Below, in pieces: positions 7,862 to 35,998 of a stretch of DNA of 64,000 nt. Numbering within the stretch: position 1 is the stretch's first letter; every line of letters starts with the position of its first letter. The DNA is from Solirubrobacteraceae bacterium (lineage in GTDB: Bacteria; Actinomycetota; Thermoleophilia; Solirubrobacterales; Solirubrobacteraceae): positions 90,999 through 154,998 of the forward strand of contig JAUJPF010000001.1 in assembly GCA_030447275.1 (NCBI GenBank). Reading direction: 5' to 3'. The position numbers and the translations under genes were made by a program. The notes below the pieces were generated by a model. That model did no database searches and was not told the origin of the DNA. It saw nothing but the letters and a program-made list of their open reading frames with translations.

Positions 7862-7872
7862 GGGCCGGCGGG

Positions 7873-8384: not shown

Positions 8385-8414
8385 GTTTCCGCCGCCGCCC
8401 GGGTCGAAGGGAAC

Positions 8415-8816: not shown

Positions 8817-8837
8817 CCCGCGGAGGGAGAGGGCTGG

Positions 8838-8953
8838 GTGCACAACGCTCCACGCGACGACCGATCGGCCGCGCGTGGAGCGTTACGCACACCATGCGGA
8901 ACGAACTGGCCACGCACGAAAACAGGACCCCGCGCGTGGAGCGTTACGCACAC
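8838..8953. repeat. Inverted repeat plus 24-nt direct repeat in a convergent intergenic region
   Basis: Left arm 8838-8856 (GTGCACAACGCTCCACGCG) pairs 17/19 with 8872-8890. The loop contains the palindrome CCGATCGG. CCGCGCGTGGAGCGTTACGCACAC occurs identically at 8869-8892 and 8930-8953. Confidence 0.8.
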
Positions 8954-9199
8954 GAGGAGGAGCGGAGCGAAGACGGGCGCAGCGACGACCCCTCTTCCCT
9001 CACCGAGCAGTTCAGACCAGCGCGCAGCCCGCAGAACGAAAGCGCACAGAGCTCGCGGATGCCCAGGAAGTAGCCACTGCGCCGCCGGGTCCATCCGGAT
9101 CTCGGCCAGGCGCTCCTCCTTGTCCGGCACGATGTTCAGCCGGTGGATCCGCTGGAACGTCTGCGGGCCGATGGTAGGACGGAACCCGGCCCGGGCGGC

Positions 9200-9562
9200 T
9201 CAGTCGTCGGGCGCGTCGGTGACGGTGTCCGCGAACGTGAACTCGCGGTCCAGGCGGGTCGCCGCCATCACGCTGCGCACCTGCGGCTGGGCCCCGACCA
9301 ACACCATCGGGGCGTGGGCGGCCGTCGCGCGGCGCAGGACGTTCAGGAGCGCCGCGAGCCCGGCCGAGTCGACGAAGCCGACCCCTTCGAGCTCGATCAG
9401 CAGCCGCTGGGCCCCGGCGCGCAACGCGTCGGCGGCCGGGGTGACGAAGCGCGGCGCGGCGGCCACGTCGAGATCGCCGACGAGCGAGAGCACGTCGGCG
9501 ACGTCCGTATGGGCGTGCACGACCACGAGGTTCCTGCCGTGTCGCAACGAATCCGTTCTCAC
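9200..9562 (-). CDS. STAS-domain anti-sigma-factor antagonist
   Basis: 120 aa with GDLDVAAAPRF ... LIELEGVGFVDSAGLAALL, typical of the SpoIIAA/RsbV family. Confidence 0.85.
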   Translation of the reverse strand: MRTDSLRHGRNLVVVHAHTDVADVLSLVGDLDVAAAPRFVTPAADALRAGAQRLLIELEGVGFVDSAGLAALLNVLRRATAAHAPMVLVGAQPQVRSVMAATRLDREFTFADTVTDAPDD

Positions 9563-9597
9563 ATCCCCAGCAACGCTGGGATCGCACTGAGGTTGGT

Positions 9598-9807
9598 TCA
9601 GACCGCGCGGATCTCACGGCCGTGGGCGACGACCACGTCCCCGGCCCGGATCTGGCGCCCGCGCCGGGTCTCGGGCTCGCCGTTGACGGTCACGCCGTCC
9701 TCGGCGAGGACGACCTTGGCCTCGGCGCCGGAGTCCACGAGCCCGGCCGCCTTCAGGAGCTGGCCGAGGCGGATCGTGTCGCCGCGGATCGCGAACTCCT
9801 CGCTCAC
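9598..9807 (-). CDS. S4-domain RNA-binding protein (YbcJ-like)
   Basis: 69 aa, IRLGQLLKAAGLVDSGAEAKVVLAEDGVTVNGEPETRRGRQIRAGDVV. The GTG start overlaps the upstream stop (GTGA at 9804-9807). Confidence 0.8.
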   Translation of the reverse strand: MSEEFAIRGDTIRLGQLLKAAGLVDSGAEAKVVLAEDGVTVNGEPETRRGRQIRAGDVVVAHGREIRAV

Positions 9808-10424
9808 TGCGCGGGCATCAGCGGCGACCGCGGCCGCGCGGCGAGGCGGCGCGGGGCCGCGAGCCTTTCGAGCATCAGCGCGGTGTCGGCGATGGGGACG
9901 CCTGTCAAATGATTCTCGCGCGCCGCGAAGTCGGCGACGATCGCCTCGACCGCGGTGGCGTAGGCGGACGCGTCGCCGGCGGCGAGCGCCGCGACGGCGT
10001 CGGCGGTGCGCGCGAACGCGTCCGAGCCGGCGCGCATCGCCTCCGCCGCCCGTGCCGCGAGCTCGTCGTCGCCCTCGACGAGCGCCGCGATCCCCAGCGC
10101 GTACGCCGAGGTGGGGGAGCCGGGGTCGCCGATCGCCGAGCGGACGAACCGCGCGGCGGTCGTCGCCTCGCCGGCCAGCACGGCGGCCTTGATCATTCCG
10201 ACGAGCCGGCCGAACGCGTCCGGCGGAGCGACGTCCCACGACGCCCGGTAGCGGTCGGACGCGGCGCGCAGGGCGTCGCGCGCGGCGACGTCGTCGCCGT
10301 CGAGCAGCGCGCGGTGCGCCTCGGCCTCCAGCGTGATCGCCTCCTCGAGGAGGACCTTGTGCTGCTCGGCTTCCACCGCCGAGACGCTATCGGGGAGCGC
10401 GCGCAGGCCGTAGAGTCGCGCCAT
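9804..10424 (-). CDS. Hypothetical all-alpha protein
   Basis: Ala-rich but non-repetitive 206-aa tail of ORF 9804..10820, translationally coupled to the S4 gene. The ATG at 10424 overlaps the divergent start at 10423; a GTG a few codons downstream is an alternative start. Confidence 0.5.
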   Translation of the reverse strand: MARLYGLRALPDSVSAVEAEQHKVLLEEAITLEAEAHRALLDGDDVAARDALRAASDRYRASWDVAPPDAFGRLVGMIKAAVLAGEATTAARFVRSAIGDPGSPTSAYALGIAALVEGDDELAARAAEAMRAGSDAFARTADAVAALAAGDASAYATAVEAIVADFAARENHLTGVPIADTALMLERLAAPRRLAARPRSPLMPAQ

Positions 10425-10950
10425 GAGCGCCACCGAGCAGCACCAGCAGTCGACCACCGAGCAGCGCCTGCGCACGATCTGGCGCGAGCTGTTCGAGGAT
10501 CGCGACCTCGGCAAGGCGTCCGAGTGGTGGTCGGAGCGCACGGTCGACCACTTCCTCGCGCTCGGCGTCTCGGCGACCGGCGCGGCGGAGCTCACGAGCT
10601 TCTTCCGCGAGCTGTTCGAGGCGGTTCCGGACGCGAAGATGCCGATCGAGCAGCTGACGGCCGACGACGACGCCCGCCGCGCCGTCGTGCAGTGGCACCT
10701 CACCGGCACGATGAGCGGCAAGCCGTTCCAGGGGATCGAGCCGCCGCCCGGCCGGCGCGTCGACATCCGCGGCTGCGACGTCTTCACCCTCGACGAGGAC
10801 GGCCGCGTCCTCGAGAACACGATCTACTACGACGCCGCCGAGTTCGCGCGGCAGATCGGGATGCTGCCGCCGCGCGACTCGGCCGTCGACCGCGGGATCA
10901 CGGCGGCGTTCAACGCGTCGACGCGGTTGCGCGCGAAGCTCCGGCGCTGA
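10423..10950 (+). CDS. SnoaL-like ester cyclase / NTF2-fold protein
   Basis: 175 aa. IWRELFEDRDLGKASEWW ... VQWHLTGTMSGKPFQGIEPPPGRRVDIRGCDVFTLDEDGRVLENTIYYD is the classic SnoaL_2 pattern. Confidence 0.8.
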   Translation: MSATEQHQQSTTEQRLRTIWRELFEDRDLGKASEWWSERTVDHFLALGVSATGAAELTSFFRELFEAVPDAKMPIEQLTADDDARRAVVQWHLTGTMSGKPFQGIEPPPGRRVDIRGCDVFTLDEDGRVLENTIYYDAAEFARQIGMLPPRDSAVDRGITAAFNASTRLRAKLRR

Positions 10951-11368
10951 GGGCGAGGCCGCCCGCGAGGAGGACGGCGCCGAACACGAGGAACCCGACG
11001 TCCCATCCGAGCGGGCCGCCGAGGTCGTCGCGCACGTGGTGGATCCCCAGCAGGAAGTGGTTGAGCGCGCCGTCGACGACGTTGAACGCGCCCCACCCGG
11101 CGAGCATCAGGCCGGCGTGGCGGCGCCACGGCGGCGCGAACTCGCCGCGCTGCCACGAGCGGACGGTGAGCGTGCTTCCCGCGAGCACGGCGAGCCACGT
11201 CGCGGCGTGGAAGAGGCCGTCGGCGAGCGTGTTGCGCTCGAGCCCGGCGAGCGAGGTCATCGGATGGTCGCCGGTGCCCGTGAGCAGGTGGTGCCACTGG
11301 AGGATCTGGTGCAGCACGATCCCGTCGACGAAGCCGCCGAGACCGATTCCCAGGAGGAGCGCGGGCAT
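10910..11368 (-). CDS. DUF2243-type integral membrane protein
   Basis: 152 aa with 4 predicted TM helices. GGFVDGIVLHQILQWHH and NHFLLGIHHV are the motifs I associate with DUF2243. Confidence 0.7.
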   Translation of the reverse strand: MPALLLGIGLGGFVDGIVLHQILQWHHLLTGTGDHPMTSLAGLERNTLADGLFHAATWLAVLAGSTLTVRSWQRGEFAPPWRRHAGLMLAGWGAFNVVDGALNHFLLGIHHVRDDLGGPLGWDVGFLVFGAVLLAGGLALSAGASRATASTR

Positions 11369-11374
11369 GCGTCG

Positions 11375-12381
11375 CTAGACGCGAACGCGCAGCATCCGGG
11401 GCCGCGACGCGCGGTTGCCGGCGCCGTCGGTCGCCCGGATCCACACGCGGTAGGTCCCGCGCGGGAGCCGGTCGGTGCGCGCCGCGATGCGGCCGATCGC
11501 CGTGCGCCGGAAGTGGCGCCGGCGGCAGCGGCTCCGGCGGCGGTCGACCCGAGCGCCGCGCACGGCGCGGCAGCGGCGTCCCGCCTGGCGGGCGAGCGCG
11601 ACGTCGACGCTGCGCACGCCGCTCGGGTCGGTGGCGACGACGTCGCGCAGCCGGCTCGCCGCGAACACGCTGCCGGGCGAGCGGCTCGCGGCGCCCGCCA
11701 CGGGCAGGTCGGCCGGCAGCAGCGCGACCAGCGGCGGCAGGAGGTCGAGCTTCGGCAGCGCGGGCAACGCGATCCCCAGCGCGCCCCAGCTCGGGCGGTA
11801 GTCCGCGTGGACGCCGTCGGTGACCGGGACCGCGGCCGCGCCCGGGCTGCCGACGTCGAGGCGGTGGATGGCGCTCCCGCGGCCGTCGGCGCCGCTCTTC
11901 GAGAAGAACAGCGTCGGCCCGAACGGCGACCACGCGATCTCGCTGTCCTGGTCCGAGCGCGGCACCAGCTCGCCGGTGAGGAGGTCGAGCGTGTAGAGCG
12001 TGCCCCGCAGCCCGAGGCCGAGCATCCGCCCGTCGGGCGAGAACGCCAGCGTGAACGGCGCGACCTCGTTCCCGGCGGCGATCACCTCGTGCGACGGCCC
12101 GCCCGCGAGCGGGCGGCTCACGATCGACGCGGGGGCGCCAGGCATGGAGCCGTGGCGCAGGTGGATGATCCGTACGCGATCCGCGTGCCGAGCAGGTCGA
12201 ACGCCGCCGTCTGCGCGTTGTCCAGCACGCGGTGCGCGCCCGTGCCGTCGTCGGCGACCCGCCACACCTCGGCGTGGCACTCGGGCGTGCAGCGAGCGGA
12301 CGTGTAGACGAGCTCCGCCGCCGCGGGCACGGCGAACGCGAGCGTCGTCGCCGCGGTCAGGGCGCAGAGCGGCTCCCTCAT
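11375..12381 (-). pseudogene. Secreted TolB-like beta-propeller protein with Ig-like C-terminus, split by a frameshift near 12170-12175
   Basis: The signal peptide and first blade lie in the frame of ORF 12118..12381 (...LLGTRIAY). The sequence continues as RIIHLRHGS...FSPDGRML...WSPFGPTLFF in the frame of ORF 11375..12280. The frame change fits a 1-nt deletion. Confidence 0.6.
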
Positions 12382-12432
12382 CGAGCCAAGGTTACGAGAC
12401 CCGCTGACGCGCGGTCAGCCGCCGCGGCGCTC

Positions 12433-13296
12433 CTAGTGGTTGACGCGGATCAACCCCCGCAGGATGTGGTGGTCGGACGCCGTGATCGCGTTGTGGACCG
12501 ACCCGTCGAGGACGTCCCAGTCGCGGTTGTTGACCCACGTGTAGTCGATCTTCCCGCGGTCGTGGGTCGCCGCACCGCAGCGGCACGTCTCGAAGCCCTG
12601 GTCGACCTCCTCGAAGATGCCGTGCGCCCCGCCCCCGAACATCGTGTAGTGGTAGAAGCGGTCGAGCTTCTCGGACTGCGGCTCGACGTTGAAGTCGCCC
12701 ATCAGCACGACGCGCTTGCCGTCGTTGGCGAGCGGCTCGACGTACTCCTTGACCGCCCGGATCTGGTCGTCCTTGTAGATCTGCGTGTACTCCGGGAACT
12801 CGTTGTCGATGTGTGTCGTGCACGTGTGGACCCAGACGGCGGCCTCCGCGGTCTTGCAGAGGAGCTTGCGACGCTCGTAGCTCGGATGCGGCAGCTCCTT
12901 GACGTACCGGCTCCCCGCGACCACGTCGCCACGGATGAGGACCGCGATGCCGTAGTCGTGCTCCGGGATGTCGCCGCCGTCGTCGCAGAGCCCGTCGTAG
13001 TGGTCCGTGTCGACCGTCTCCGCGAACTCGCCGTGCCAGGCCGGGGGGAGGCGCGCCATCAGCTCGCGGTACTGGTTCTCGCAGACCTCGTTCAGGCTGA
13101 CGAACTTCGGGTCGTCCCCGGGGTTGATCGTGAGCGAGTCGACGATCGGCCCGACCGGGTCGGACCGGCCGTCCTCCTGCGTGTTGCCCGCCATGTTGAA
13201 GTGCCACGTCTTCCACTGGTGGCTGGCCGCGGCCGTTCCGGCCTGCGCGCTGACGATCATGAGCGCGAGCAGCAGCGCGCGGGCGAATCTGGGCAT
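12433..13296 (-). CDS. Secreted endonuclease/exonuclease/phosphatase (EEP) family protein
   Basis: Signal peptide MPRFARALLLALMIVSAQAGTAAA, WHFNMAGN near the N-terminus, MGDFN and C-terminal SDHHIL motifs. It has 7 Cys residues. Confidence 0.8.
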   Translation of the reverse strand: MPRFARALLLALMIVSAQAGTAAASHQWKTWHFNMAGNTQEDGRSDPVGPIVDSLTINPGDDPKFVSLNEVCENQYRELMARLPPAWHGEFAETVDTDHYDGLCDDGGDIPEHDYGIAVLIRGDVVAGSRYVKELPHPSYERRKLLCKTAEAAVWVHTCTTHIDNEFPEYTQIYKDDQIRAVKEYVEPLANDGKRVVLMGDFNVEPQSEKLDRFYHYTMFGGGAHGIFEEVDQGFETCRCGAATHDRGKIDYTWVNNRDWDVLDGSVHNAITASDHHILRGLIRVNH

Positions 13297-13336
13297 GCGG
13301 CGAGCATCCCACCACCGAGCAGGAAACGCAATGCAG

Positions 13337-13795
13337 TCAGCGGCCGAAGCCGCTGACGAACCGCCTGGCGCTGCCCGCGACCGCGCCCAGCAGCTCGCGG
13401 ACCTCGGACAGGCCGGCGCGCAGCTCGGCGTCGCCGACCTCGACGGGCATCATCGAGTCCTGGAGCGTCGCGAGCGCGCCGTCCGCGCGGGCCACGGCGT
13501 CGACGGCGGAGTCGACGAACCCCTTGACCCCGCGCGACGCGGCGCCGGAGGACGCCGGCGTGAAGTCGCGGCGCGGCAGCCCGTGGCGGTCGGCGAACGC
13601 CGAGTGGGTGCGCCGGGCGCGCCCGTACGCGACCTGGACAGGGCGGAAGATCTCCTCCTCGAGCCTGTCCGCGCTCAGCTCGTCGAGCTGCTCGTAGGCG
13701 TCGCCCAGCGCCGCGAGCGCGACACCGATCTCGTCGATCGCGGCGGCGATCGCGTCGAGCAGCTCCTGCCGGGCCTCGGCGGCGACGTAGGTCAT
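13337..13795 (-). CDS. Hypothetical helical protein
   Basis: 152-aa ORF with balanced composition and GC-rich third positions. No motif recognised. Confidence 0.5.
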   Translation of the reverse strand: MTYVAAEARQELLDAIAAAIDEIGVALAALGDAYEQLDELSADRLEEEIFRPVQVAYGRARRTHSAFADRHGLPRRDFTPASSGAASRGVKGFVDSAVDAVARADGALATLQDSMMPVEVGDAELRAGLSEVRELLGAVAGSARRFVSGFGR

Positions 13796-13804
13796 ACCGC
13801 CACG

Positions 13805-14101
13805 CTAGAGGTCCGTCTGCTTCACCGTCGGGCTGGGGTGGACGCTGACCACCCGCAGCGTCTCGTCGCCAGCGCACTTGAAGCCGTGCGGCGTCTCGGC
13901 GGGGACGGTGACGATGTTCCCGCCCTCGACCGTGAGCTGCTCGTCGCCCGCGGTGAACACCGCCGTGCCGGTCTCGACGACGAACACCTCCGGGTACGGG
14001 TGCACGTGCAGATCGGGGCCGTGGCCGCGCTCGTACGTGGTGACGAAGATCGAGACCGGCGCCTCGTCGCGGCGGTCATCGATGGGGGTGACGGTCGCCA
14101 T
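13805..14101 (-). CDS. Cupin-domain protein
   Basis: 98 aa with GPDLHVHPYPEVFVVETG ... VTVPAETPHGF (cupin motifs 1 and 2). Confidence 0.8.
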   Translation of the reverse strand: MATVTPIDDRRDEAPVSIFVTTYERGHGPDLHVHPYPEVFVVETGTAVFTAGDEQLTVEGGNIVTVPAETPHGFKCAGDETLRVVSVHPSPTVKQTDL

Positions 14102-14170
14102 GGGCGGAGCGTACGTAACGTGGCGGCGAACGCCTCGTTCGATCCGACGCGGCTCGGCTGACCCGTCCCG

Positions 14171-14458
14171 TCAGGCGCCGGCGGGGCGCCGCCTGACGAG
14201 CCACCGGTCGACGACGAAGCCGCCGAACGGGAGCACCGCGCCGGCGAGCACCCACAGCGTCGTCGACCCGCTCCAGCCGAGCCGGTCGCGCAGCCGCAGC
14301 GCGAGGAGCACGTAGGCCACGAACAGCGCGCCGTGGATCGGTCCGAGGACCGTCACGCCGAGCTCGCCCGAGCCCGTGTGCTTCAGGTAGCTCGCGACCA
14401 GCAGCGCGAGGAACGACGTCGCCTCGGCGAGCGCCACGATGCGGAACGGCTTGATCAT
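14171..14458 (-). CDS. DUF3817-type small membrane protein
   Basis: 95 aa with 3 TM helices. FRIVALAEATSFLALL ... GPIHGALFVAYV fits the DUF3817 pattern. Confidence 0.7.
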   Translation of the reverse strand: MIKPFRIVALAEATSFLALLVASYLKHTGSGELGVTVLGPIHGALFVAYVLLALRLRDRLGWSGSTTLWVLAGAVLPFGGFVVDRWLVRRRPAGA

Positions 14459-14476
14459 CGGCTGCCAGTGTGACGG

Positions 14477-16820
<2,344 letters not shown>

Positions 16821-16829
16821 CGACGCGCG

Positions 16830-17240
16830 CTAGGCCTGCTCGATGCGCAGGAAGTTGCCAGCGGGGTCGCGGAACGCGGCGTCACGCGCGCCCCAGGGCT
16901 GGCTCAGCGGCTCCTGCAGCACCTCGACGCCGGGCGCGGCCGCGATCTTCTCGAACGTCGCGTCGAGGTCCTCGGCGCTGAAGTGGAGGGGACGCAGCTC
17001 GCCCTTGGCGAGCAGCGCGGCGACCGTGTCGCCGTCCTCCTGCGAGCGCCCGGCGTGCGGCTGGGAGAGCACGATCTGGATCTCCGGCTGGGTGTCGCTC
17101 GCGAGCGTGATCCAGCGGAACGGGTCGCGCTTCACCTCGTTGCGGACGGTGAGCCCGAGGGTGTCGCGGTAGAAGGCGAGGGCGGCATCGGGGTCGTCGA
17201 CGAGGACGTGCACGGCGCGGATCGCAACGGTCATGGGCAC
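16830..17240 (-). CDS. VOC family (glyoxalase/bleomycin-resistance-like) protein
   Basis: 136 aa. HVLVDDPDAALAFYRDTLGL ... FRDPAGNFLRIEQ. Confidence 0.8.
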   Translation of the reverse strand: MPMTVAIRAVHVLVDDPDAALAFYRDTLGLTVRNEVKRDPFRWITLASDTQPEIQIVLSQPHAGRSQEDGDTVAALLAKGELRPLHFSAEDLDATFEKIAAAPGVEVLQEPLSQPWGARDAAFRDPAGNFLRIEQA

Positions 17241-17244
17241 GAGA

Positions 17245-17700
17245 CTAGGAACGTGCCGGCGCGGATGCTTCTCCGAAACTGCTCGATCGCCGTGTCGGCT
17301 TGCGCGGCCGGGTGAGCACCATCACCTGGCAGCCCGGGATGACCTCGAGCTCGGCGTGGTCGCGGGCGCGGTAGGCGCTCGGCGTCTCGCCGACGACCTG
17401 CGTGAACCGGGCGGAGAACGAGCCGAGGCTGGTGCAGCCGACGGCGAAGCAGGCCTCGGTCACGCTCATGTCGCCGCGGCGCAGCAGCGCGGTGGCGCGC
17501 TCGATGCGCCGGGTCATCAGGTACGAGTACGGCGTCTCGCCGTACGCGTCGCGGAAGCGCCGGCTGAAGTGCGCGGTCGACATGAACGCGGTGCGGGCCA
17601 GCGCCGCGACGTCGAGCGGCCGGCCGTACTCGCGATCCATCCGGTCGCGGGCGCGCCGCAGCCGCCGCAGCTCGTCGAGGTCCGGTGCGCCCACGGTCAC
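17245..17700 (-). CDS. AraC-family HTH transcriptional regulator (short form)
   Basis: 151 aa starting at the GTG at 17700. FMSTAHFSRRFRDAYGETPYSYLMTRRIERATALL and FAVGCTSLGSFSARF are the two AraC HTH units. Confidence 0.8.
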   Translation of the reverse strand: MTVGAPDLDELRRLRRARDRMDREYGRPLDVAALARTAFMSTAHFSRRFRDAYGETPYSYLMTRRIERATALLRRGDMSVTEACFAVGCTSLGSFSARFTQVVGETPSAYRARDHAELEVIPGCQVMVLTRPRKPTRRSSSFGEASAPARS

Positions 17701-18876
17701 AGTGTGCCGGGAACGCTGCGGCGCAGCTGCCGCGTCTCGGGGAGGACGAGGAGCACCGCGGCGAGCGCACCGAAGATCCCGAACGCCACCCAGAGGGAGG
17801 CGCTCACGCCGATCGCCGCCGCCAGCGGCGCCCAGATGACCATGCCGAGCGGATAGAAGGCAAACGAGCCGAACCAGTCGTACGAGCTCACGCGCGAGAG
17901 CGACTCCGCCGGGATCTGCCGCTGAAGCGTCGACTCCCAGACCGACGTCCCGAGCATCAGCCCGATTCCGGAAAGGAAGGCGCTGAACGCGAGCAGCGCG
18001 ACGGGCGCACCCGCGGCGAGGAACGCGGGGGAGGGCGAACAGGCCCTCCACCAGCGCCACGAGGATGAGCGGCCGCAGCGGATCGACGCGCGTCGCGACC
18101 GCGCTTCCCACGAGCGCGCCGACGCCGATCGCCGCGAGGACGGCGCCCCACGCGTCGGCCCCGCCGAGCTCGCGGTCGGCGACGACCGGGCCGAGCGCGC
18201 TTCACGCGGCCCACATCATGTTCCCGAGCGCGAAGTAGCCGACGAAGGTCCAGACCCACCGCCGCGAGCGGAAGGCGACCCACCCCGTCCGCAGGTCGGC
18301 GAGGAACGATGCGCCGCGCTCGCGCGCGCGGACGGGAACGCGAAGTGCGGCGAGGCACGCTGCGCTGACGGCGAACGTCGCGGCGTCGACGGCGATCGCG
18401 GCGCCGGCCCCCAGGGCGGCGACGATCAGGCCCGCGGCGAGCGGTCCGACGATCTCGCCGGCCGAAACCGCGGTCGAGCGCAGCGCGTTCGCCCGCTGGA
18501 GGTGCTCGGCGGGGACGAGCTCGGGGAGCAGCCCGGTCGAGGCGGGGCTGAAGAACCCGGTCCCGAGGCCGGTGAGTGCCGCGGGCACGGCCAGCATCCA
18601 GACCTCCGCGACGCCGCCGATCAGCAGCGCCGCCGTCAGGCCCTGCGTCACGACCCTCAAGAGGTCGGCCGTGACCATGACCGTCCGGCGCGAGACGCGG
18701 TCGGCGACCACACCGCCGACGAGGACGCTCATCACCAGCGGCGCCGTGCGCGCCGCGCGCACGAGACCGACGGCCGCCGCCGAGCCGCCGATCTCGAGCA
18801 CGGCGAACGCCAGCGCCGCGGCCACCATCCGATCGCCGAGGACGGACACGCCGTGCGCGAATGACCGGCAGCTCAC
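17697..18876 (-). pseudogene. MFS transporter (EntS/MFS_3-like) with an in-frame TGA, a frameshift and a truncated 5' end
   Basis: The N-terminal half is ORF 18202..18876. The stop at 18202-18204 sits where TGG would give ...NMMWAAWSALGPVV.... The frame is then lost at the G5/C5 run 18027-18031 (EGLFALP|PAFLAAGAPV...). The C-terminal part is ORF 17697..17957. Confidence 0.75.
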
Positions 18877-19063: not shown

Positions 19064-19110
19064 GGAGCCGGTCGTGCGTGATTCGATGTCGAGAACCTCC
19101 GACCGGCTCC
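19064..19110. promoter_or_regulatory. 11-bp perfect inverted repeat upstream of the YCII-sigma operon
   Basis: GGAGCCGGTCG (19064-19074) and CGACCGGCTCC (19100-19110) are separated by 25 nt, about 55 nt upstream of the ATG at 19165. Confidence 0.3.
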
Positions 19111-19164
19111 GCTCACCAGGCGAAGGGCCACGAGACGCGCGGCCCACGACACCAGGAGACCACG

Positions 19165-19575
19165 ATGCCCAAGTACCTGCTTCTCAAGCACTACCGCGGC
19201 GGCCCCGAGCCGCACCATCCCTTTCCCCCGATGGACCAGTGGGCGCCGGAGGACGTGGAGGCGCACATGGCCTTCCTGCGGCGCGTCAGCGAGGTGCTCG
19301 AGGAGAGCGGCGAGTACGTCGGGGCGCAGGCGCTCACGCCGAAGCGCACCTGGGTCCGCTACGGCGGCCCGGACGCCGCGCCCGTCACCACCGACGGCCC
19401 GCACCCCGAGACCAGCGACCTCGTGGCGGGCTGGTACATGATCGACGTCGAGTCGTATGAGCGCGCGCTCGAGATCGCGGCGTTCGTGTCCTCGGAGCCC
19501 GGCCCCGGCGGAGAGCCGCTGTACGAGTGGATCGACGTCCGGGAGGTCATGTCCGGGGCGCCGTCGGAGGGCTGA
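19165..19575 (+). CDS. YCII/DGPF-domain protein
   Basis: MPKYLLLKHYRGGPEP... ; ATG preceded by AGGAGA. It has the usual position directly upstream of a DUF6596-type sigma factor. Confidence 0.75.
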   Translation: MPKYLLLKHYRGGPEPHHPFPPMDQWAPEDVEAHMAFLRRVSEVLEESGEYVGAQALTPKRTWVRYGGPDAAPVTTDGPHPETSDLVAGWYMIDVESYERALEIAAFVSSEPGPGGEPLYEWIDVREVMSGAPSEG

Positions 19576-19579
19576 GCCC

Positions 19580-20836
19580 GTGCAACGGCTGGACGAGGGC
19601 GCGCTGCGCGCCCTCGTCCCCCGGGTGCTCGCCGGCCTGGTCCGCCGGGGGGAGGACTTCGACGCCGCCGAGGACGCGCTCCAGGAGGCGCTGCTGGAGG
19701 CGTTGCGGGTCTGGCCCGAGCACCCGCCGCGCGACCCGCGCGCGTGGCTGACCACGGTCGCGACGCGGCGGCTCGTCGACGCCCACCGCAGCGAGGTCGC
19801 CCGGCAGCGCCGCGAGGAGACGGCGTACGCGGAGCCGCCGCCGGTCGCCACGGAGGAGGGCGACGACACCCTCTTCCTGCTCTTCTGCTGCTGTCACCCC
19901 GACCTCGCGCCCGCCTCCCAGGTGGCGCTGACCCTGCGCGCCGTCGGCGGCCTCGCCACGCGGGAGATCGCCGACGCCTTCTACGTTCCGGAGGCGACGA
20001 TGGCGCAGCGGATCAGCCGCGCCAAGCGCGCCCTGCACGGGCGCCGGCTGGACCAGCCCGGCGACCTCGCCGTCGTGCTGCGCGTGCTCTACCTCGTCTA
20101 CACCGCCGGCCACGCCGGACGGGTCGACCTGGCCCGCGAGGCGATCCGGCTCGCCCGCCAGCTCACCCTCGCGACCGAGGAGCCCGAGGCGCGCGGGCTG
20201 CTGGCGCTGATGCTCCTGAACCACGCCCGGCTCCCGGCGCGGCTCGACGCCGAGGGCCGGATCGTCACGCTCGACCGCCAGGATCGCAGCCTGTGGAACA
20301 CGCGCGAGATCGCCGAGGGCGTCCGCGTCCTGCAATCGGCGCTCGCCACGCAGACGGAGGAACGGCCGCCGGGCCGCTACCAGGTCGAGGCGGCGATCGC
20401 CGCCCTGCACGCCGACGCGGCGAGCGCCGAGCAGACCGACTGGCCGCAGATCCTCGCGTGGTACGACGAGCTCGTCGCGCTGACCGAGGACCCGGTACGC
20501 GAGGATCCTGCCGCCGTGCTCGGCCGCGCGGTCGCCGTCGGCCACGTCCTCGGCGCCGCCGCCGGGCTGCGCGAGACCGACCGGCTGCGCGAGGCGATCG
20601 GCGAGCGCCACCGGTGGCACGCCGTGCGCGGCCACCTGCACGAGCTCGACGGCGACCTCCCGGCCGCCGCCGCGGCCTACGCCGAGGCGGCCCGCCGGGC
20701 GACGAACGTCGCCGAGCGCGACCACCTGGTCCGCCAGGCGGCCCGGGCGCGGGTCGACGCTTCGCGCGAGTGGACGTTGACGTCGAGCGGGGTCAGGGTC
20801 TCACCGCCTCTGGACAAAGGCGCGACGAGACGCTAA
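19580..20836 (+). CDS. ECF-like sigma-70 family factor with a long C-terminal (DUF6596/TPR-like) extension
   Basis: Region 2 (AEDALQEALLEALRVWP...AWLTTVATRRLVDAHR) and region 4 (ALTLRAVGGLATREIADAFYVPEATMAQRISRAKRAL) are followed by about 230 aa of helical extension. GTG start at 19580. Confidence 0.8.
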   Translation: MQRLDEGALRALVPRVLAGLVRRGEDFDAAEDALQEALLEALRVWPEHPPRDPRAWLTTVATRRLVDAHRSEVARQRREETAYAEPPPVATEEGDDTLFLLFCCCHPDLAPASQVALTLRAVGGLATREIADAFYVPEATMAQRISRAKRALHGRRLDQPGDLAVVLRVLYLVYTAGHAGRVDLAREAIRLARQLTLATEEPEARGLLALMLLNHARLPARLDAEGRIVTLDRQDRSLWNTREIAEGVRVLQSALATQTEERPPGRYQVEAAIAALHADAASAEQTDWPQILAWYDELVALTEDPVREDPAAVLGRAVAVGHVLGAAAGLRETDRLREAIGERHRWHAVRGHLHELDGDLPAAAAAYAEAARRATNVAERDHLVRQAARARVDASREWTLTSSGVRVSPPLDKGATRR

Positions 20837-20868
20837 AGTCCGTAGCTCCCGCTACCGAGTTTCTGAAG

Positions 20869-21426
20869 ATGCCGACGCTCCTCAACCGCAACGAAGCGGC
20901 CGACCTCGCGGGCCTGTCCGTCAACGCCGTCAAGAATGCGCTCGACAGGAAGATCGTGCCCGCCGCCGTCAGCGAGGGCGGCCAGTCGCTCATCGACGCG
21001 CGTGACGTCGCGGTGCTGGTGATCCTCGCGTCCCTGGACACGCTGCGCGCCGCCGACAAGCGCCGCGTGCGGGACTGGCTGGTGACTGACCGCGTAAGCC
21101 GGCGGCTGCGCCTGAACGACGTCCTCACCGTTGAGCGCGTCCCGCACGCCGACCGCGCCGCAGAGGAGGCCGAGCGCTACGCGCACCTGCGGGACAAGTG
21201 GATCGTCAGCGACCCGGCCGTGCGCGGCGGTGAGCCTGTGGTTCGCGGCTCGCGCATCAGCGTGCACACGCTCGCCGAGCGCCTTGCACACGGGGAGAGC
21301 GACGAGATCCTCGACCGCGACATGCCCCACGTCCCGAAGGAGGCGCGGGAAGTAACCGTCCGGTACGCGAAGACCCACCCCCGGCGTGGCCGCCCTGCCG
21401 CACGCCGGAAGTTGCGCGCCGCGTGA
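20869..21426 (+). CDS. HTH + DUF433 domain protein (antitoxin-type architecture), no cognate toxin adjacent
   Basis: 185 aa. The N-terminal LNRNEAADLAGLSVNAVKNALDRKIV looks like an HTH. The C-terminal SDPAVRGGEPVVRGSRISVHTLAERLAHGESDEIL is the DUF433 signature. Confidence 0.75.
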   Translation: MPTLLNRNEAADLAGLSVNAVKNALDRKIVPAAVSEGGQSLIDARDVAVLVILASLDTLRAADKRRVRDWLVTDRVSRRLRLNDVLTVERVPHADRAAEEAERYAHLRDKWIVSDPAVRGGEPVVRGSRISVHTLAERLAHGESDEILDRDMPHVPKEAREVTVRYAKTHPRRGRPAARRKLRAA

Positions 21427-21509
21427 ATGTGCGCCGCGAGCCACCGCAAACCGATCTGCGTGCCGCTGCTCCGTACGAGTACACATAAGCGGCGTTATCG
21501 AGCGTTGGA

Positions 21510-22850
21510 TCAGGACGAAACGCGGTCCACGACGAGCCGGAAGCTCGCGCCGCTCCGGCCTGGGGCCCACAGCGTGTCCTTCGCGCTATGCGGGGTGAAT
21601 CGGGGGCGCCATCCCGGCTGGTTGGCGGCGAGCGGGACCAGATGGACCACTGCCTCTTCGCCTGACGCTTGGTCCACGAGACGACCGCGAAGGTGCCGCC
21701 CCTGGAAGCCGCCCAGGTCTGGGATGTGGCGCGCCCACAGGTTGTGGTCGTTGCGATCGAGGGTTATGTCGAGCGGCGCGGGCAGCGCTTCGAAGTTCAC
21801 CGTGGGCGTGACTTCCTCGACGAGCCGGCGCATTACCCCGAGGGCCTTTGCGAGAGCGGCGTCGCTCGTGTCGGCGAGCGACACTCGGCGATACCACCCG
21901 TCCTTCGTCTCGCCTCCGATGCCTGCCTCCGCCAACACCGCCCGCGCTCGATCGAACGGGTCCTGTGGAAAGTCCGCTGTCGCCTTGAGCGTGATCCCGA
22001 GTCGCTTGCTTTCGAGCCAGGCGACCTGACGCTGCTGTCCGCGCGTCACGGTGATGCTCGGGCCGTACGTGCGCCAAATGACGTCGGCTCCTGCTTCGGC
22101 GGCCTCCGTCAGAAAGCTTGCTATCGGCTCCCGGGTGCGCTCCGGAATCTGCTCAAAGAACGTTTCTTGGTCGAGCGGCGGCGGGTTCGGCGTGTCCCCT
22201 CGTGGATCGGAGGCGAGCGGCTTGACGACAAGCCTCGGCACGAAGCACTCGACTGGGCCGCGGAAGTAGCTGACCTCCAAGCCGAAGAACCGTTGGCCAC
22301 GCGCGTTCAGATACTCGAGCACGCGCTGCACGTTCAGCGGGATCTGGGGTGCGGCTACGACCAGTGTGAAGTCGCCGGCGGCAAGTGTCTGACCGAGTTG
22401 CTCCGCGACGGCGTCGGGCTCGACGGTGCCCTCGGTGAGGCTCTCTACGATGTACTCGCTGATCGAAGGGAACGGTGGCGTCTCGCCCACCGCAGCAAGG
22501 AACGGCTGGAGGACGCGCTGGTCGAACTCTTCGAGCGAGAGACCCCATAGCGATGCTGCGTAGTCCAGCAACTGCGCGACGACGCGCCGCGTGTCTGGGT
22601 TTCCCTCGTTCTTGACCTCGACGAGACACAGCCGCCCGCGGTCGTCGACGAGGACGAGGTCGGCGTAGCCGGCAGCGAGCCCCGACTCGCGCCCAACGAC
22701 GATCGCCTCGCCGAGGCCGAGGTCGGACGAAGGCAGGAGCGCGGGATATTGCGTCAGAGCGTCATGCAGTTCGGCTTCTGTGGGCAGCGCGGCCTCCCCC
22801 ACGATCTGCGGCTCCGCATCCTGGGCTCGAATCAGCACGTGGCGGGTCAT
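21510..22850 (-). CDS. PD-(D/E)xK (NucS/RecB-like) nuclease-domain protein with an uncharacterised C-terminal half of about 230 aa
   Basis: 446 aa. The core GYADLVLVDDRGRLCLVEVKNEGNPDTRRVVAQLLDYAASL (D...ExK...Q, nt 22551-22670) is followed by FTLVVAAPQIPLNVQRVLEYLN. I could not assign the remainder. Confidence 0.75.
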   Translation of the reverse strand: MTRHVLIRAQDAEPQIVGEAALPTEAELHDALTQYPALLPSSDLGLGEAIVVGRESGLAAGYADLVLVDDRGRLCLVEVKNEGNPDTRRVVAQLLDYAASLWGLSLEEFDQRVLQPFLAAVGETPPFPSISEYIVESLTEGTVEPDAVAEQLGQTLAAGDFTLVVAAPQIPLNVQRVLEYLNARGQRFFGLEVSYFRGPVECFVPRLVVKPLASDPRGDTPNPPPLDQETFFEQIPERTREPIASFLTEAAEAGADVIWRTYGPSITVTRGQQRQVAWLESKRLGITLKATADFPQDPFDRARAVLAEAGIGGETKDGWYRRVSLADTSDAALAKALGVMRRLVEEVTPTVNFEALPAPLDITLDRNDHNLWARHIPDLGGFQGRHLRGRLVDQASGEEAVVHLVPLAANQPGWRPRFTPHSAKDTLWAPGRSGASFRLVVDRVSS

Positions 22851-23000
22851 CCGGTCGCTGCCGTCCGCGGCCGCCTCGGGGCCGCTCCCCGAGCATTGCG
22901 GGTCGAACCCCTTGCCGCGCTTGCGGCCGTCGACCTCGCTCTGTCGTCAAGCGATGCCATTCTTCCGCTCGTGTCAGCGGCGTCGGGCAGTCGTGCGCTC

Positions 23001-23630
23001 ATGTCTAAGAGCATCTTCACCCGCGCTGGCTCGATCTACGCGCCGTTCGCCACCGCCGAGGTCCGGCGGATGCGGCGCCTCGTCGGACAGGTAGACCGTC
23101 TGCGCGGCTTCTCGTTCTTCGAGCATCCGCAACACCGGATGAAGGCCACCTTCGCCGGCGGAGTGGTTTCGAACGTGCGGGCGGACGCTCCGGGCGATGA
23201 GGCGATCTTCGCGGTCGTCCGATCTTCCGCGAGCTCTACAACCCGCACAGCACGACGAGCGCCGACCAGATCGTGATGCTCCTGAGCCGCCGCGCTCACG
23301 AACAGGCGTCCGTCTTCCCAAATGAAGCGATCGCTGACCTCCGGGAACTACGACGGCCTCCGGTGGCGACGAAAGAATGACCCGCGAAGCAGCCTGTTCG
23401 AAGAGAGCGGCGCCGGGACCTTCGTCGCACGAACGCGCGAGTCCATCATCGACACCTGGCTCTACGGCGAGTATCTCCACTTCGACGAGCCAAGAGCGGC
23501 CGAGCTCGTGGAGGGCCACCCAGCGACGGAGATGATGAAGTCACGCTCCTCTCGGCGATCCACGACTTCAGCACCATCTGGGGCCACGTCCGCAACGCTG
23601 CATTCGCAGCGACGCGCGAGCCGTCACTGA
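23001..23630 (+). pseudogene. Shattered ORF of unknown family (about 210 aa spread over four frame segments)
   Basis: Protein-like segments are MSKSIFTRAGSIYAPF...AIFAVV (frame 0), IFRELYNPHSTTSADQIVMLLSRRAHEQ (frame 2 from about 23222), SLFEESGAGTFVARTRESIIDTWLYGEYLHFDEPRAAELVEG (frame 0) and DDEVTLLSAIHDFSTIWGHVRNAAF (frame 2 from about 23531). Confidence 0.45.
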
Positions 23631-23693
23631 TTCGGTAGCGACGACGGCGCCGCGCCCGAGCACGGCGCCCGGGTCGGCGTCGATACTGCCGTC

Positions 23694-24773
23694 ATGTACG
23701 AGACCGACCTGCACCTCGAGCCCAACGAGGCCTCCGACCTCTGCGACGTGTTCGACGACGACGTCCTGCGCGCGCGCGGCTGGGACGAGGCGCTGCTGAC
23801 GGTCATGGACGAGGCGCCCGCCGAAGAGGCGCTTGCGCTCATCGTCCACGAGGCGGGTGCCGGGCACGGCGAGGGCTGGAGCGCGATGCGGGTGCCGTCG
23901 GACGCCGGCGGCGACGCCGGCCGCACCGAGGATGCGGAGGCGTGCGCCCGGCGCGACGGGTTCGTCTACGTCATGGGCTCGCAGTTCGGCAAGAAGAGCG
24001 GGCCGCTGGCCGCCAAGCGATCGTGGATCGCGCGCGTCCCGGAGGCCGCGCTGCTCGAGGCGATCGACGGCGGCACGCCGGCGCCGCTCGAGGTCGCGCG
24101 GACGCGCTTCGCCGTCCACCGCGCCGTCAACGACGCCATCGTCGCGGCGGGGATCGACGTGCTCGAGCTCGGGGACCGCTCGCGCGAGGCGTACATCGAC
24201 GCGACGATCGCCGTCGGCGAGGAGAAGGGCAAGCGCTGGGCAGGGCGCGTCGCGCCGCACGACCATCCGCTCAACGTCGAGGGCATCGAGTTCCGCGCGG
24301 GCGGCGCGCTGCTGATCGGCCTGCGCTACCCGGTCACGGCAGACGGCCGGCCGATGCTCGTCGAGGTCGGCGACCCGGGCGCCCTCTTCGACGAGCCCGA
24401 GCGGCCGCCGGCGTGCGACGCGGTGTGGGTGCTCGACGGGTGCGGGACGGCGGCGCAGCCCGCAGGCATCCGCGCGCTCCACACCCACGGCGAGGACCGG
24501 TTCGACGCGATCGTCGGGGACCTCGACGCCGCGAACAAGGGCGCCACCGTCCTCGAGGACCACCCCCACGGCGGCGCGGCGACCTCGCGCCACGTCTGCT
24601 TCGCGCTTCCGGCGGGACGAGGCGGCGCGGTCGACGCCGAGCTGGTCCACGACTTCGGCGACGTCCGCCGCGTCGAGGGGCTCGTCGTGCACGACGACGG
24701 AAGCGCGCACTACGTGCTCGACGAGGAAGGCCGCGTCGCGCTGCGGACCAGCCCCTTCAGCGCCGCCACGTAG
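23694..24773 (+). CDS. DUF3616-like hypothetical protein
   Basis: 359 aa. FVYVMGSQFGKKSGPLAAKRSW and LNVEGIEFRAGGALLIGLRYPV resemble my recollection of DUF3616 motifs. Assigned from memory only. Confidence 0.5.
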   Translation: MYETDLHLEPNEASDLCDVFDDDVLRARGWDEALLTVMDEAPAEEALALIVHEAGAGHGEGWSAMRVPSDAGGDAGRTEDAEACARRDGFVYVMGSQFGKKSGPLAAKRSWIARVPEAALLEAIDGGTPAPLEVARTRFAVHRAVNDAIVAAGIDVLELGDRSREAYIDATIAVGEEKGKRWAGRVAPHDHPLNVEGIEFRAGGALLIGLRYPVTADGRPMLVEVGDPGALFDEPERPPACDAVWVLDGCGTAAQPAGIRALHTHGEDRFDAIVGDLDAANKGATVLEDHPHGGAATSRHVCFALPAGRGGAVDAELVHDFGDVRRVEGLVVHDDGSAHYVLDEEGRVALRTSPFSAAT

Positions 24774-24888: not shown

Positions 24889-26286
24889 CTAGTGGCAGGA
24901 CCTCACGTTCGGGACGTCGACGCGGTGGTTGCCCGATTCGGTGAGCGTGCCGACGACGCGCCGGTAGTACCACCGGCCGGGCGAGCACTTCCAGTACAGG
25001 CGCCGGTCCGCGGTGATCGTCACCGGGGTCTTGTCGCAGCGGCCCAGGCGGCAGAGGTGCGCGGTGCCGTGCGCCCGCGCCCGCGGGCTGCCCCATCCCG
25101 TCCAGTGCAGGTCGCTGGCGAAGCCGGTCATCCCGTCGAGGATGAGCGGCAGGCGGGCGGGCCTGACGCGCTCCTCGTCGCCGGTTCCGAGTCCGATCCT
25201 GGTGGCCTGCGGCGGTGTCAGCCGCTGGCGGCACTTCGCCGACGTCGCCGGGGCGAGCCGCCCGGATGTGGCGCGGATCGTGTGCGCGGCCCGTCGCGCG
25301 AACACGCTCGCGCGGATGCTCGCGAAGACGTCCCGCGCGGGGGCCTCCCGAAGGAGCTTCGCCAGTCGCTCGAGGGCCTGGGCCGAGGTCTTGGCGTGGT
25401 TCTCGTCCTCCATACGGTCGCCGGACGCGCGGCCGCCGCGCAAGAGCAGGTCATAGGCGAACGGCGCGCACGCGCCGGCGATCGCGTACTCGGCCTCGAG
25501 CTCCGTGATGCCGGTGACGTAGAGACTCCAGGCGGCCTCGCGATCCTGCTCGGGGAGGGACTCGGACAGGCCTGCCTCGGCAAGCACGACGACCGCCGTC
25601 GCGAAGCCGTTGAAGATGAGCTGGTGGCGCTGGTAGCTGTACTCGGCGTAGTGCGTTTCGACCACGCCGGGGGTCGCGACGCCGCCCCGCTCGACGGGCA
25701 GCTCGAAGACCGCGATCAGGCCGCGGACCATCGCCAGGTCGCGCTCCGCGTTGCTCTGCTCGAAGGCCAGCAGCCACGCACGCAGGGCGCTCGCGTGCGA
25801 AAGGCCGCTGATCCAGCGCTCGGGGCTGAAGCGACCGTCGCCACCGCACGGCACCCCCTCGCGGCACGCCTTCCCGAGCTGGCCGTGCTCGAAGACCCGC
25901 GGCGCGTCGCCGCGGCGCACCGCGTAGCGCTCGGCTTCCTCCAGCCGGAGGCGCCCGAGCTCGTTCACGACCGGGTTCTCGTCGCGGAGCTCCTGAGCCG
26001 CCCGCACGAACGTGTCGTGCCAGTCGACGTGCCAGTGACGACGGTCGTCGCCGGGGCGCGCCTTGAAGCGACCGAACAGGAGCTTGGTGTCGTGGCCGGG
26101 CACCTCCATGCCGACGCCCCGTGTGGCGCACTCTCCCGGCCTCGGGTCACCCGCCTCCGCGTTCGCGAGCGACAGCTCATGGCAGTGCTGGTCGACCTCG
26201 CGCTCGAAGACGGTCAGCGCGTCGTCGGCGGCGTGGGCGGTCGCCGGGAAGGCGAGGGCGATGAGGAGCAGCGGGAGCAGGCGCAC
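24889..26286 (-). CDS. Secreted hypothetical protein (465 aa, Cys-containing)
   Basis: Signal peptide MRLLPLLLIALAFPATAHA and normal, non-repetitive composition. No family recognised. Confidence 0.6.
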   Translation of the reverse strand: MRLLPLLLIALAFPATAHAADDALTVFEREVDQHCHELSLANAEAGDPRPGECATRGVGMEVPGHDTKLLFGRFKARPGDDRRHWHVDWHDTFVRAAQELRDENPVVNELGRLRLEEAERYAVRRGDAPRVFEHGQLGKACREGVPCGGDGRFSPERWISGLSHASALRAWLLAFEQSNAERDLAMVRGLIAVFELPVERGGVATPGVVETHYAEYSYQRHQLIFNGFATAVVVLAEAGLSESLPEQDREAAWSLYVTGITELEAEYAIAGACAPFAYDLLLRGGRASGDRMEDENHAKTSAQALERLAKLLREAPARDVFASIRASVFARRAAHTIRATSGRLAPATSAKCRQRLTPPQATRIGLGTGDEERVRPARLPLILDGMTGFASDLHWTGWGSPRARAHGTAHLCRLGRCDKTPVTITADRRLYWKCSPGRWYYRRVVGTLTESGNHRVDVPNVRSCH

Positions 26287-34387: not shown

Positions 34388-35073
34388 GCGGGTGAGCGGC
34401 CGGGCGCGCCCTTCGCGTCCGGCCCGCCCTGCTCCAGCAGATCGATCACGGCGCGCGCCGACGCGCGCAGGTGCTCGCGCAGCGCGTCGGGACCGCGCTG
34501 CTCGAGGTCGTCGACGAGCTGCTCGTGGTCGCCGGCCATGCGCTCGTACGTCCACGACGGCCTGAGCTGGACGAGGAAGAGCCGCGTCTCCGCGGCGAGC
34601 GCACGGTGGGCGGCGGCGATGCGCGGGCTGTGCGACGCGGCGACGAGCGCGTGGTGCACGTCCTCGTGGGCGTCGACGACGGCGCTCCACCGCGGGCGCG
34701 CGCGCCGGCACGCCTGCGCGAGCCGCGCGGTCGCCGCGTGGACCTCGGCGGGCAGTGCGCCGTCGTAGCGCTCGAGCGCGAGCCGCGCCGCCTCGAGCTC
34801 GAGCGCGGCGCGCAGCTCGTAGAGGCCCTGGACGGCGGCGGCGTCGAGCGCGGCGACGCGCGCGCCGCGGTGCGGCTCGACGACGACGAGCCCCTCGGCC
34901 TCGAGCGCGCGCAGCGCCGCGCGGACGGTGTGCCGTGCGACGTCGTAGCCGGTGCTCAGCTCCTGCTCGCGCAGGCGCGCGCCGCCGCCCAGCTCGCCGT
35001 CGAGGATCCGCGCGCGCAGCGCCTCCGCGAGCGCGTCGACGGTCGAGCGGCGGTCGAGCGGCGTGACGCTCAC
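34384..35073 (-). CDS. GntR-family (FadR/FCD subfamily) transcriptional regulator
   Basis: LREQELSTGYDVARHTVRAALRALEAEGLVVVEPHRGARV wHTH plus a helical FCD domain. GTGA overlap with the EamA gene at 35070-35073. Confidence 0.85.
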   Translation of the reverse strand: MSVTPLDRRSTVDALAEALRARILDGELGGGARLREQELSTGYDVARHTVRAALRALEAEGLVVVEPHRGARVAALDAAAVQGLYELRAALELEAARLALERYDGALPAEVHAATARLAQACRRARPRWSAVVDAHEDVHHALVAASHSPRIAAAHRALAAETRLFLVQLRPSWTYERMAGDHEQLVDDLEQRGPDALREHLRASARAVIDLLEQGGPDAKGAPGRSPA

Positions 35074-35978: not shown

Positions 35979-35998
35979 TGACCGGATTGGTCCACAAT

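Follow-up and report, generated by a model that had tools for sequence, protein, structure and literature searches.

The stretch of DNA analysed here, referred to as the window, is 64,000 nucleotides (nt) of the genome of a Solirubrobacteraceae bacterium (contig JAUJPF010000001.1, positions 90,999 to 154,998). Its content of guanine plus cytosine (GC) is ~74% over the whole length and its genes have their nearest database relatives in metagenome-assembled genomes of Solirubrobacterales/Solirubrobacteraceae (Thermoleophilia, Actinomycetota). Within the window a first-pass annotation, made from the letters alone, had picked out a lower-GC patch with a gene for a 185-amino-acid (aa) protein with helix-turn-helix (HTH) and DUF433 domains, a convergent gene for a 446-aa PD-(D/E)xK protein after a gap of 83 bp, and a divergent open reading frame (ORF) split into four frame segments. 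It had proposed that the three form one defence or toxin-antitoxin (TA) like module. The description of the individual genes stands, the grouping does not. From comparison with related loci the real unit is a two-gene cassette of ~2.16 kb (21482-23638), which consists of the nuclease gene and the broken gene of ~213 aa, with the DUF433 gene lying outside of it. The features of the locus are as follows.

20869-21426, plus strand: gene for the 185-aa HTH+DUF433 protein, identified with Pfam, a neighbour of the cassette and outside it
21423-21488, plus strand: GTGA start/stop overlap at the DUF433 stop, then a 21-codon ORF, recognised by comparison with the junctions of loci L036 and L039
21482-21506, no strand: 25-nt edge motif, the outer limit of the DNA common to three sister cassettes
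21510-22850, minus strand: gene for the 446-aa nuclease, an intact ORF
22212-22850, minus strand: NucS/EndoMS-like PD-(D/E)xK domain, the N-terminal part of the nuclease (aa 1 to ~213)
21513-22184, minus strand: C-terminal module of the nuclease (aa 223-446), two domains in the predicted structure
22851-23000, no strand: divergent intergenic region of 150 bp between the nuclease and partner genes
23001-23638, plus strand: partner pseudogene of an orphan family of ~213-226 aa, in four frame segments

The limits of the cassette are apparent from two further copies, which lie on the Solirubrobacterales contigs L032 and L022 (L-numbers, and P0123 below, are labels of the contigs or loci that were compared). 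In blastn, positions 21510-23610 of the window match L032 with 83% nucleotide identity over 2108 nt, a match that covers the nuclease gene, the 150-bp intergenic region and nearly the whole of the partner gene, and positions 21510-23045 match L022, again with 83% identity, over 1538 nt. There are no flanking genes common to the three loci. In the window the cassette lies between the DUF433 gene and a gene for a 359-aa protein, in L032 it lies between an unknown gene of 658 aa and a YkuD gene, and in L022 between a YCII gene and the gene of a DUF5122 propeller protein. The state of the partner gene also differs, as it is intact in L032, reduced to a stump in L022 and frameshifted in the window.

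All three cassettes share the 25-nt motif CACATAAGCGGCGTTATCGAGCGTT past the nuclease stop, at a spacing that varies from 3 to ~100 nt, and the similarity between them ends after the motif. The window has one copy, L022 and L032 have one copy each with 1-2 mismatches at 73-100 nt past the nuclease stop, there were 0 matches in shuffled sequences, and no match was found in all the other compared loci or in viral contigs. Neither a second copy of the motif nor terminal repeats were found at the cassette. The 150-bp intergenic region is conserved across the three cassettes, including that of L022 despite the loss of its partner gene, and presumably holds both promoters; no consensus sigma-70 site was found within it (22851-23000).

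The composition of the DNA marks out the same segment. The shift in composition that had been noticed by eye over 20837-23690 is real, although it does not span that whole range, as the foreign segment is ~21.5-23.6 kb and the DUF433 gene is host-like. The atypical composition is confined to ~21.48-23.64 kb, with a GC of 0.667 for the cassette against 0.739 for the 3 kb on either side, and when taken in 1-kb steps 0.67-0.70 at 21-24 kb against ~0.74 elsewhere in the window. GC at third codon positions (GC3) is 0.805 in the nuclease gene, compared with a window mean of 0.925 (standard deviation 0.052, z -2.3) and values of 0.94-0.96 in flanking genes, and nowhere in the 64 kb does tetranucleotide usage deviate more than in the 2-kb interval 21501-23500 (z 3.99). 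For the DUF433 gene GC3 is 0.903, and the interval 19501-21500 has a tetranucleotide z of -0.4. The same deviation is found in L032 and L022, the GC of the cassette in the three genomes being 0.667, 0.674 and 0.672, against 0.71-0.75 for the flanks.

A further comparison is provided by L024, a metagenomic contig, for which the genes to either side of the locus in the window have to be known.

19078-19575, plus strand: YCII gene
19457-20836, plus strand: sigma factor of the extracytoplasmic function (ECF) type with DUF6596
23694-24773, plus strand: ORF of 359 aa without a Pfam hit
24889-26286, minus strand: C5-epimerase-like gene

L024 carries a homologue of the 359-aa gene with 80% identity, yet the cassette, the sigma factor and the DUF433 gene are all missing next to it. 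Instead homologues of genes from 14-18 kb of the window adjoin the homologue of the 359-aa gene. In the window these genes, at 14076-18201, encode a 917-aa ATPase followed by a protein of the glyoxalase/bleomycin-resistance family and an AraC regulator, and the same three-gene block stands directly after the 359-aa homologue in L024. Because of this arrangement the stretch from 18.2 to 23.7 kb is variable or rearranged between relatives.

The first-pass annotation saw no integrase, transposase or flanking direct repeats, and this is borne out, as a scan of genes from 14 to 28 kb found no integrase or transposase domain and the flanking repeats of the cassette are only at chance level. Scans for tRNA and Rfam RNA genes near the cassette were empty, as was a terminator scan of the region. 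Thus, of the usual signs of a small islet, atypical composition, varied contexts and absence from a relative are all present here, and mobility genes, a tRNA target and repeats are not. Foreign composition, recurrence in unrelated contexts, a shared edge and absence from L024 together show a small segment that moves horizontally, and the cassette appears to have been acquired in this way by a Solirubrobacterales chromosome, where it lies beside an unrelated orphan DUF433 gene.

Whilst the DUF433 gene is the closest neighbour of the nuclease, there is little to link the two. Its DUF433 domain matches Pfam PF04255 over aa 112-166 (E 1.4e-12, 47.7 bits against a cut-off of 23.6) and the match to HTH_17 is weak (E 0.019). 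There are 89 homologues of ~183-185 aa, some of which are annotated as HTH proteins of the excisionase family. The order of an HTH followed by a DUF433 domain, which the first-pass annotation had linked to VapB45-type antitoxins, is that of DUF433-DUF5615 type II TA pairs, and in two of the four homologue contexts examined, L036 (51% identity) and L039 (66% identity), a DUF5615 gene does follow the DUF433 homologue with a 4-bp overlap, the homologues in the other two (L035 and L037) being solitary. The window differs from such pairs in that it has neither a toxin gene nor a remnant of one, with a best E of 1.8 in tblastn with a DUF5615 partner as the query, and the DUF433 gene is not linked to the nuclease. 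No PIN-like toxin gene, be it DUF5615, DUF4411 or PIN, is adjacent to and translationally coupled with the DUF433 gene, which has only 83 bp downstream of it. The DUF433 protein is therefore at most an orphan antitoxin or regulator, and its description as an antitoxin-type protein lacking a partner was correct.

It is possible that a trace of the lost toxin is left. The DUF433 stop lies within a GTGA overlap of the kind found in DUF433-DUF5615 pairs, and the 21-codon ORF that follows (21423-21488) ends inside the edge motif. This ORF is possibly the stump of a lost DUF5615 toxin that was truncated on arrival of the cassette, with a similarity that is too weak to count as evidence. From 20.7 to 23.8 kb there is a single sigma-70-like promoter match, TGGACA-17-TAAAGT at 20811-20839 on the plus strand. 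It lies across the end of the sigma-factor gene, immediately upstream of where the DUF433 gene starts, and suggests that this gene has its own promoter.

Homology to the sister cassettes starts at the nuclease stop and the 25-nt motif, and the DUF433 gene is therefore excluded from the cassette. When the neighbours in the window were searched by tblastn in the DNA around nuclease homologues, fetched up to 10 kb per side, no DUF433 gene was found in ~22 loci. On these comparisons the DUF433 gene and the nuclease are neighbours by accident.

The second gene of the cassette has been lost in the window. In nucleotide alignment with the intact copy of L032, the closest one, the window lacks 1 nt at 23219, 2 nt at ~23350 and 1 nt at ~23541, and the protein reconstructed across the four frame segments has six intact homologues of 214-264 aa, with 52-73% identity and 97-100% coverage. 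The shattered ORF is thus a genuine pseudogene. Its family is small (six clusters), with no match in Pfam, NCBIfam, PADLOC, PHROGs or a PDB sequence search and no profile similarity to the nuclease. The ratio of non-synonymous to synonymous substitution rates (dN/dS) against the intact copy is 0.27. In L022 only ~60 nt of the 5' end are left and the start codon is mutated.

Only in the window and in L032/L033 does the partner gene have a nuclease as its neighbour; it is absent from ~20 other nuclease loci, and genes of the partner family without a nuclease neighbour are found in L034, in L038 and on the P0123 contig. The intact copy of L034 lies in a stretch (4478-14634) that resembles an integrative and conjugative element (ICE), with ParB_N, ArdC-N, an HTH protein of the sigma-r4 type and a 1006-aa CHAT protease. 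In L012 (206-2510) a nuclease relative is found ~7 kb from homologues of the ArdC-like gene of L034 and of its neighbour. In two of the three sister cassettes the partner has decayed, each time independently, whilst the nuclease has kept its active site and remains under purifying selection, and the partner is therefore not an essential antitoxin or obligate subunit. A TA-like dependency between the nuclease and the ~213-aa partner, in which neither could be lost by itself without inactivating the toxin, is contradicted by this pattern. The partner travelled with the nuclease but is dispensable, and it is dead here by three frameshifts.

The nuclease itself is well preserved. Its catalytic motif is complete, with E55, D64, E78-V-K80, Q93 and Y97 invariant in an alignment of 38 homologous sequences, so that the PD-(D/E)xK assignment already made from the sequence is confirmed. 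Among the three sister genes dN/dS is 0.11-0.18, with 0.07 for the nuclease domain and 0.20 for the C-terminal module; the gene is under purifying selection and is the maintained cargo of the cassette. There are 185 clusters of homologues, nearly all of ~445 aa and annotated as hypothetical, and those with a taxonomy are almost all from Solirubrobacterales. The distribution is patchy, with 18 loci among 185,579 species genomes. Neither Pfam nor NCBIfam holds a model for the family, whose members are labelled 'hypothetical protein' everywhere. A phage origin was considered and rejected, as no relatives were found in IMG/VR, GenBank phages or PHROGs.

The 446-aa protein is a nuclease of no named family, and its sole match in a defence library is to an untested candidate, the PADLOC profile PDC-S11, to positions 4-159 of 358 of which aa 4-185 align (E 9.5e-13), with only the N-terminal domain taking part. 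PDC systems are 145 untested candidates that were proposed by 'guilt-by-embedding' (bioRxiv 10.1101/2024.01.29.577857). The nuclease resembles PDC-S11 in being a single stand-alone nuclease gene, and the first ~160-190 positions of the profile are matched at E 1e-12 to 1e-17 by the protein, its homologues and plasmid relatives. It differs in that about half of the 358-position profile aligns to the window nuclease, the C-terminal half being unrelated, and in that the family exceeds PDC-S11 by ~90 aa and has an additional beta-rich domain. A match over the whole profile (358-379 positions) was found neither for the homologues nor for a subgroup of ~355 aa nor for the plasmid relatives, the alignments reaching profile position 218 at most.

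The closest characterised relatives are the mismatch-repair endonucleases NucS and EndoMS. The AlphaFold model of the 446-aa protein has a mean predicted local distance difference test score (pLDDT) of 86.9 and the predicted secondary structure of the core runs H25-34, E49-58, E61-69, E74-79 and H87-101 (H, helix; E, strand). The top Foldseek matches are EndoMS 5gke and NucS 2vld (E 5e-4 to 2e-3, probability 1.0), which involve the N-terminal half only, with template modelling (TM) scores of only 0.17-0.34. Membership of the PD-(D/E)xK superfamily, which is defined by catalytic acidic and lysine residues (D...(D/E)xK) on an alpha-beta-beta-beta-alpha-beta core, is established by the invariant residues, the predicted fold and the Foldseek matches to PD-(D/E)xK enzymes, and the core shares with NucS/EndoMS the motif E...D...ExK...Q...Y. 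A full-length match to the NucS equivalog of NCBIfam (NF003270) fails, however, as aa 24-101 align to positions 129-198, the catalytic core alone, with 16.7 bits and E 0.003 against a cut-off of 216 bits. NucS and EndoMS are proteins of ~230-250 aa with an N-terminal DNA-binding and dimerisation domain and a C-terminal nuclease, whereas in the 446-aa window protein the core is N-terminal (~25-210). Because only NucS positions 129-198 align, the N-terminal DNA-binding and dimerisation domain of NucS is not detected in the window protein, which in turn has a C-terminal module of 224 aa that NucS lacks. Unlike NucS/EndoMS, the window nuclease is also accessory and mobile, with a patchy distribution.

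A separate model of the C-terminal half (aa 223-446), made with 63 sequences, has a pLDDT of 96.4 and a predicted TM-score (pTM) of 0.86, and this half is predicted to consist of an alpha/beta domain (~228-347) and a beta-rich domain (~353-446). Modelling and a Foldseek search of the 446-aa protein had been suggested at the outset, and the outcome is a recognisable NucS/EndoMS-like domain joined to a module with no significant match in the PDB (best E 0.025, TM 0.23-0.26) or in BFVD (best E 0.01, TM 0.18). An exhaustive profile search of 1.84 billion protein representatives found 66 that match the C-terminal module at E <= 0.001, and the subgroup of ~355 aa has only the first domain of the module. 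A TIR-like middle domain was considered because Brucella TIR proteins matched weakly in a profile search (E 0.017), and was set aside when Foldseek on the pLDDT-96 model gave no support.

In general kind the protein is reminiscent of solitary (type IV-like) restriction endonucleases and of single-protein abortive nucleases, in which a nuclease is fused to a non-catalytic module without a cognate methyltransferase, and which are likewise mobile, patchy and sometimes found near restriction-modification (RM), TA or TIR genes. It differs from them in that there is no recognisable SRA, EVE or YTH reader, NTPase or known sensor domain and in that the C-terminal fold is unmatched, so that the resemblance is one of functional analogy only.

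The genomic contexts of the nuclease homologues are diverse. When 398 neighbour ORFs from ~21 loci were clustered all against all, the only family to recur was one of IS110 transposases, and amongst 149 neighbour proteins scanned, which allow no statistic per locus, there are scattered RM, TIR, TA, reverse transcriptase and transposase matches among many metabolic genes. Some neighbourhoods contain TIR/ThsB-like, MazE/PemK, ResIII plus methyltransferase, RM methyltransferase, reverse transcriptase or DDE transposase genes. Those of L002 (2784-3152) and L003 (13267-18128) look like defence islands, with TIR/ThsB-like, MazE and PemK genes and a ResIII helicase with an N6/N4 methyltransferase. 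In L015 (2164-5028) the nuclease homologue is split by a transposase of the IS110 family (Pfam DEDD_Tnp_IS110 and Transposase_20), and L009 and L016 also have transposase ORFs related to that of L015 close to their nuclease genes. On 24 plasmids, 16 of which are from Rhodococcus, there are distant relatives of the nuclease domain, of ~350 aa with 25-34% identity and annotated 'hypothetical protein', which adjoin insertion sequence (IS) elements, integrases or recombinases and an RM S subunit. Such contexts are those of an accessory gene that stands alone and is associated with mobile DNA, and judged from them a defence role is plausible.

The explanation favoured here, with a probability of about 0.5, is that the window holds an acquired two-gene cassette, the maintained nuclease of which restricts foreign DNA alone, beside an unrelated orphan DUF433 gene. 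The 446-aa protein would work as a stand-alone DNA-cutting enzyme, whose C-terminal module may control or target the cutting, either by reading a feature of the DNA or by sensing an invader. Stand-alone cutting with a targeting module would thus amount to a one-protein barrier to foreign DNA such as phages, plasmids and ICEs, in the same manner as solitary restriction-type or abortive nucleases. In the DUF433 protein the antitoxin or regulator half of a DUF433-DUF5615 pair would survive, the toxin of which may have been lost at or before the arrival of the cassette at that spot. A bolder form of this explanation, possible but to be held tentatively, is that the 446-aa protein founds a largely Solirubrobacterales family of single-protein immunity against mobile genetic elements, in which a NucS-type nuclease is gated by a C-terminal sensor of unseen fold and the partner is an optional accessory, such as a specificity or regulatory factor, that has been repeatedly shed.

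A number of points weigh against restriction by an acquired cassette. No mobility machinery was found and neither was a target-site duplication, and the differing contexts of the cassette could partly reflect rearrangement between fairly distant genomes. Many of the homologue neighbourhoods hold ordinary metabolic genes (aconitase, serine hydroxymethyltransferase, dehydrogenases), and an enrichment in defence islands is therefore not demonstrated. The defence candidate PDC-S11 is itself untested and is matched by its nuclease domain only, and the role given to the C-terminal module is pure conjecture.

The least unlikely of the alternatives is an obligate two-gene system, in which the nuclease would for instance be the effector and the ~213-226-aa protein a sensor, regulator or immunity protein, the window copy then being broken and its nuclease residual or repurposed. 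The transfer of the two genes as a block with a conserved 150-bp divergent promoter region and the intact partner of L032 fit such a system, and the dN/dS of 0.27 suggests that the partner was functional until recently. Yet it has been lost from two of the three sister cassettes, whilst the nuclease keeps an intact active site and remains under purifying selection; it is missing from ~20 other nuclease loci, its relatives in L034, L038 and the P0123 contig lack a nuclease, and no profile similarity or known domain hints at a role for it. Also unlikely, and ranked after this system, is a cellular nuclease of DNA repair or recombination, that is, a NucS/EndoMS paralogue used for housekeeping genome maintenance. 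Its best structural and hidden Markov model relatives are indeed mismatch-repair endonucleases, purifying selection is strong, many homologues lie among metabolic genes and the family is absent from phage collections. What a housekeeping role does not account for is that only the catalytic core aligns to the NucS equivalog (16.7 as against 216 bits), that the distribution is patchy and the genomic position not conserved, that the composition is foreign in three genomes, and that copies have been destroyed by IS insertion or truncation and relatives of the domain are plasmid-borne.

Two further explanations are less probable again. The cassette might be a selfish or addictive nuclease element that promotes its own spread without benefit to the host, as a homing endonuclease or solitary restriction enzyme would. 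This is improbable. The cassette is compact and moves without any recombinase, and the conserved 25-nt edge motif could belong to a target or recombination site, but no intein, intron or disruption of a target gene is seen, the insertion sites differ and have no duplicated target sequences, and purifying selection on a 446-aa multi-domain protein across ~185 diverged clusters fits a benefit to the host at least as well. The three-part module that was originally proposed, in which the DUF433 protein would regulate or neutralise the nuclease, now seems very improbable. It drew on the adjacency of the genes with a convergent gap of 83 bp and on an antitoxin-type fold whose usual partner is missing here. 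Against it stand the absence of DUF433 genes near the ~22 nuclease homologues and from the homologous part of the cassettes, the host-like composition of the DUF433 gene as opposed to that of the cassette, the pairing of DUF433 homologues with DUF5615, and the convergent orientation, which speaks against co-transcription.

The catalytic domain of the nuclease and its general kind, a solitary mobile nuclease, are already known, whilst the nuclease family, the combination of domains and the partner are undescribed and the C-terminal fold is without a match in the PDB and BFVD. If the nuclease is an effector of defence or against plasmids, it would add a family from Solirubrobacterales, a poorly studied actinobacterial order rich in uncultured members. 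The pairing of a mismatch-repair-type catalytic domain with a confidently modelled module that lacks a known structural relative would, if true, make that module a candidate for a new sensor or DNA-reader domain. For annotation there are two lessons, that the adjacency of genes in a low-GC patch can mislead and that accessory partners decay with the core effector retained.

Of the genes around the cassette, the 359-aa gene (23694-24773) had been called DUF3616-like, which could not be reproduced, as its product has no hit in Pfam (at E <= 0.1), NCBIfam, PADLOC or PHROGs; it has eight metagenomic homologues with 53-80% identity in varied contexts. An ORF for a major facilitator superfamily (MFS) transporter at 18202-18876 on the minus strand, which abuts the AraC gene, aligns with no more than positions 3-218 of the MFS_1 profile (347 positions) and is possibly truncated or frameshifted. 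The 917-aa protein encoded within 14076-18201, a double P-loop ATPase like those of the ATP-binding cassette (ABC) and UvrA proteins, has a gene with a low GC3 (0.806) and a tetranucleotide z of ~2.1. Outside the cassette the second-strongest tetranucleotide outlier is 34501-36500 (z 2.77), where GC is unusually high (0.788 at 35-36 kb). ARAGORN calls a tRNA-Gln(CTG) of 92 nt at 2966-3057 on the plus strand, which is unusually long for a bacterial tRNA-Gln and may therefore contain an intron, be wrongly bounded or be false. Finally, a Logan contig from run SRR24765285 matches the window over 4163 nt with 100% identity, and possibly derives from the same reads as the assembly of the window.

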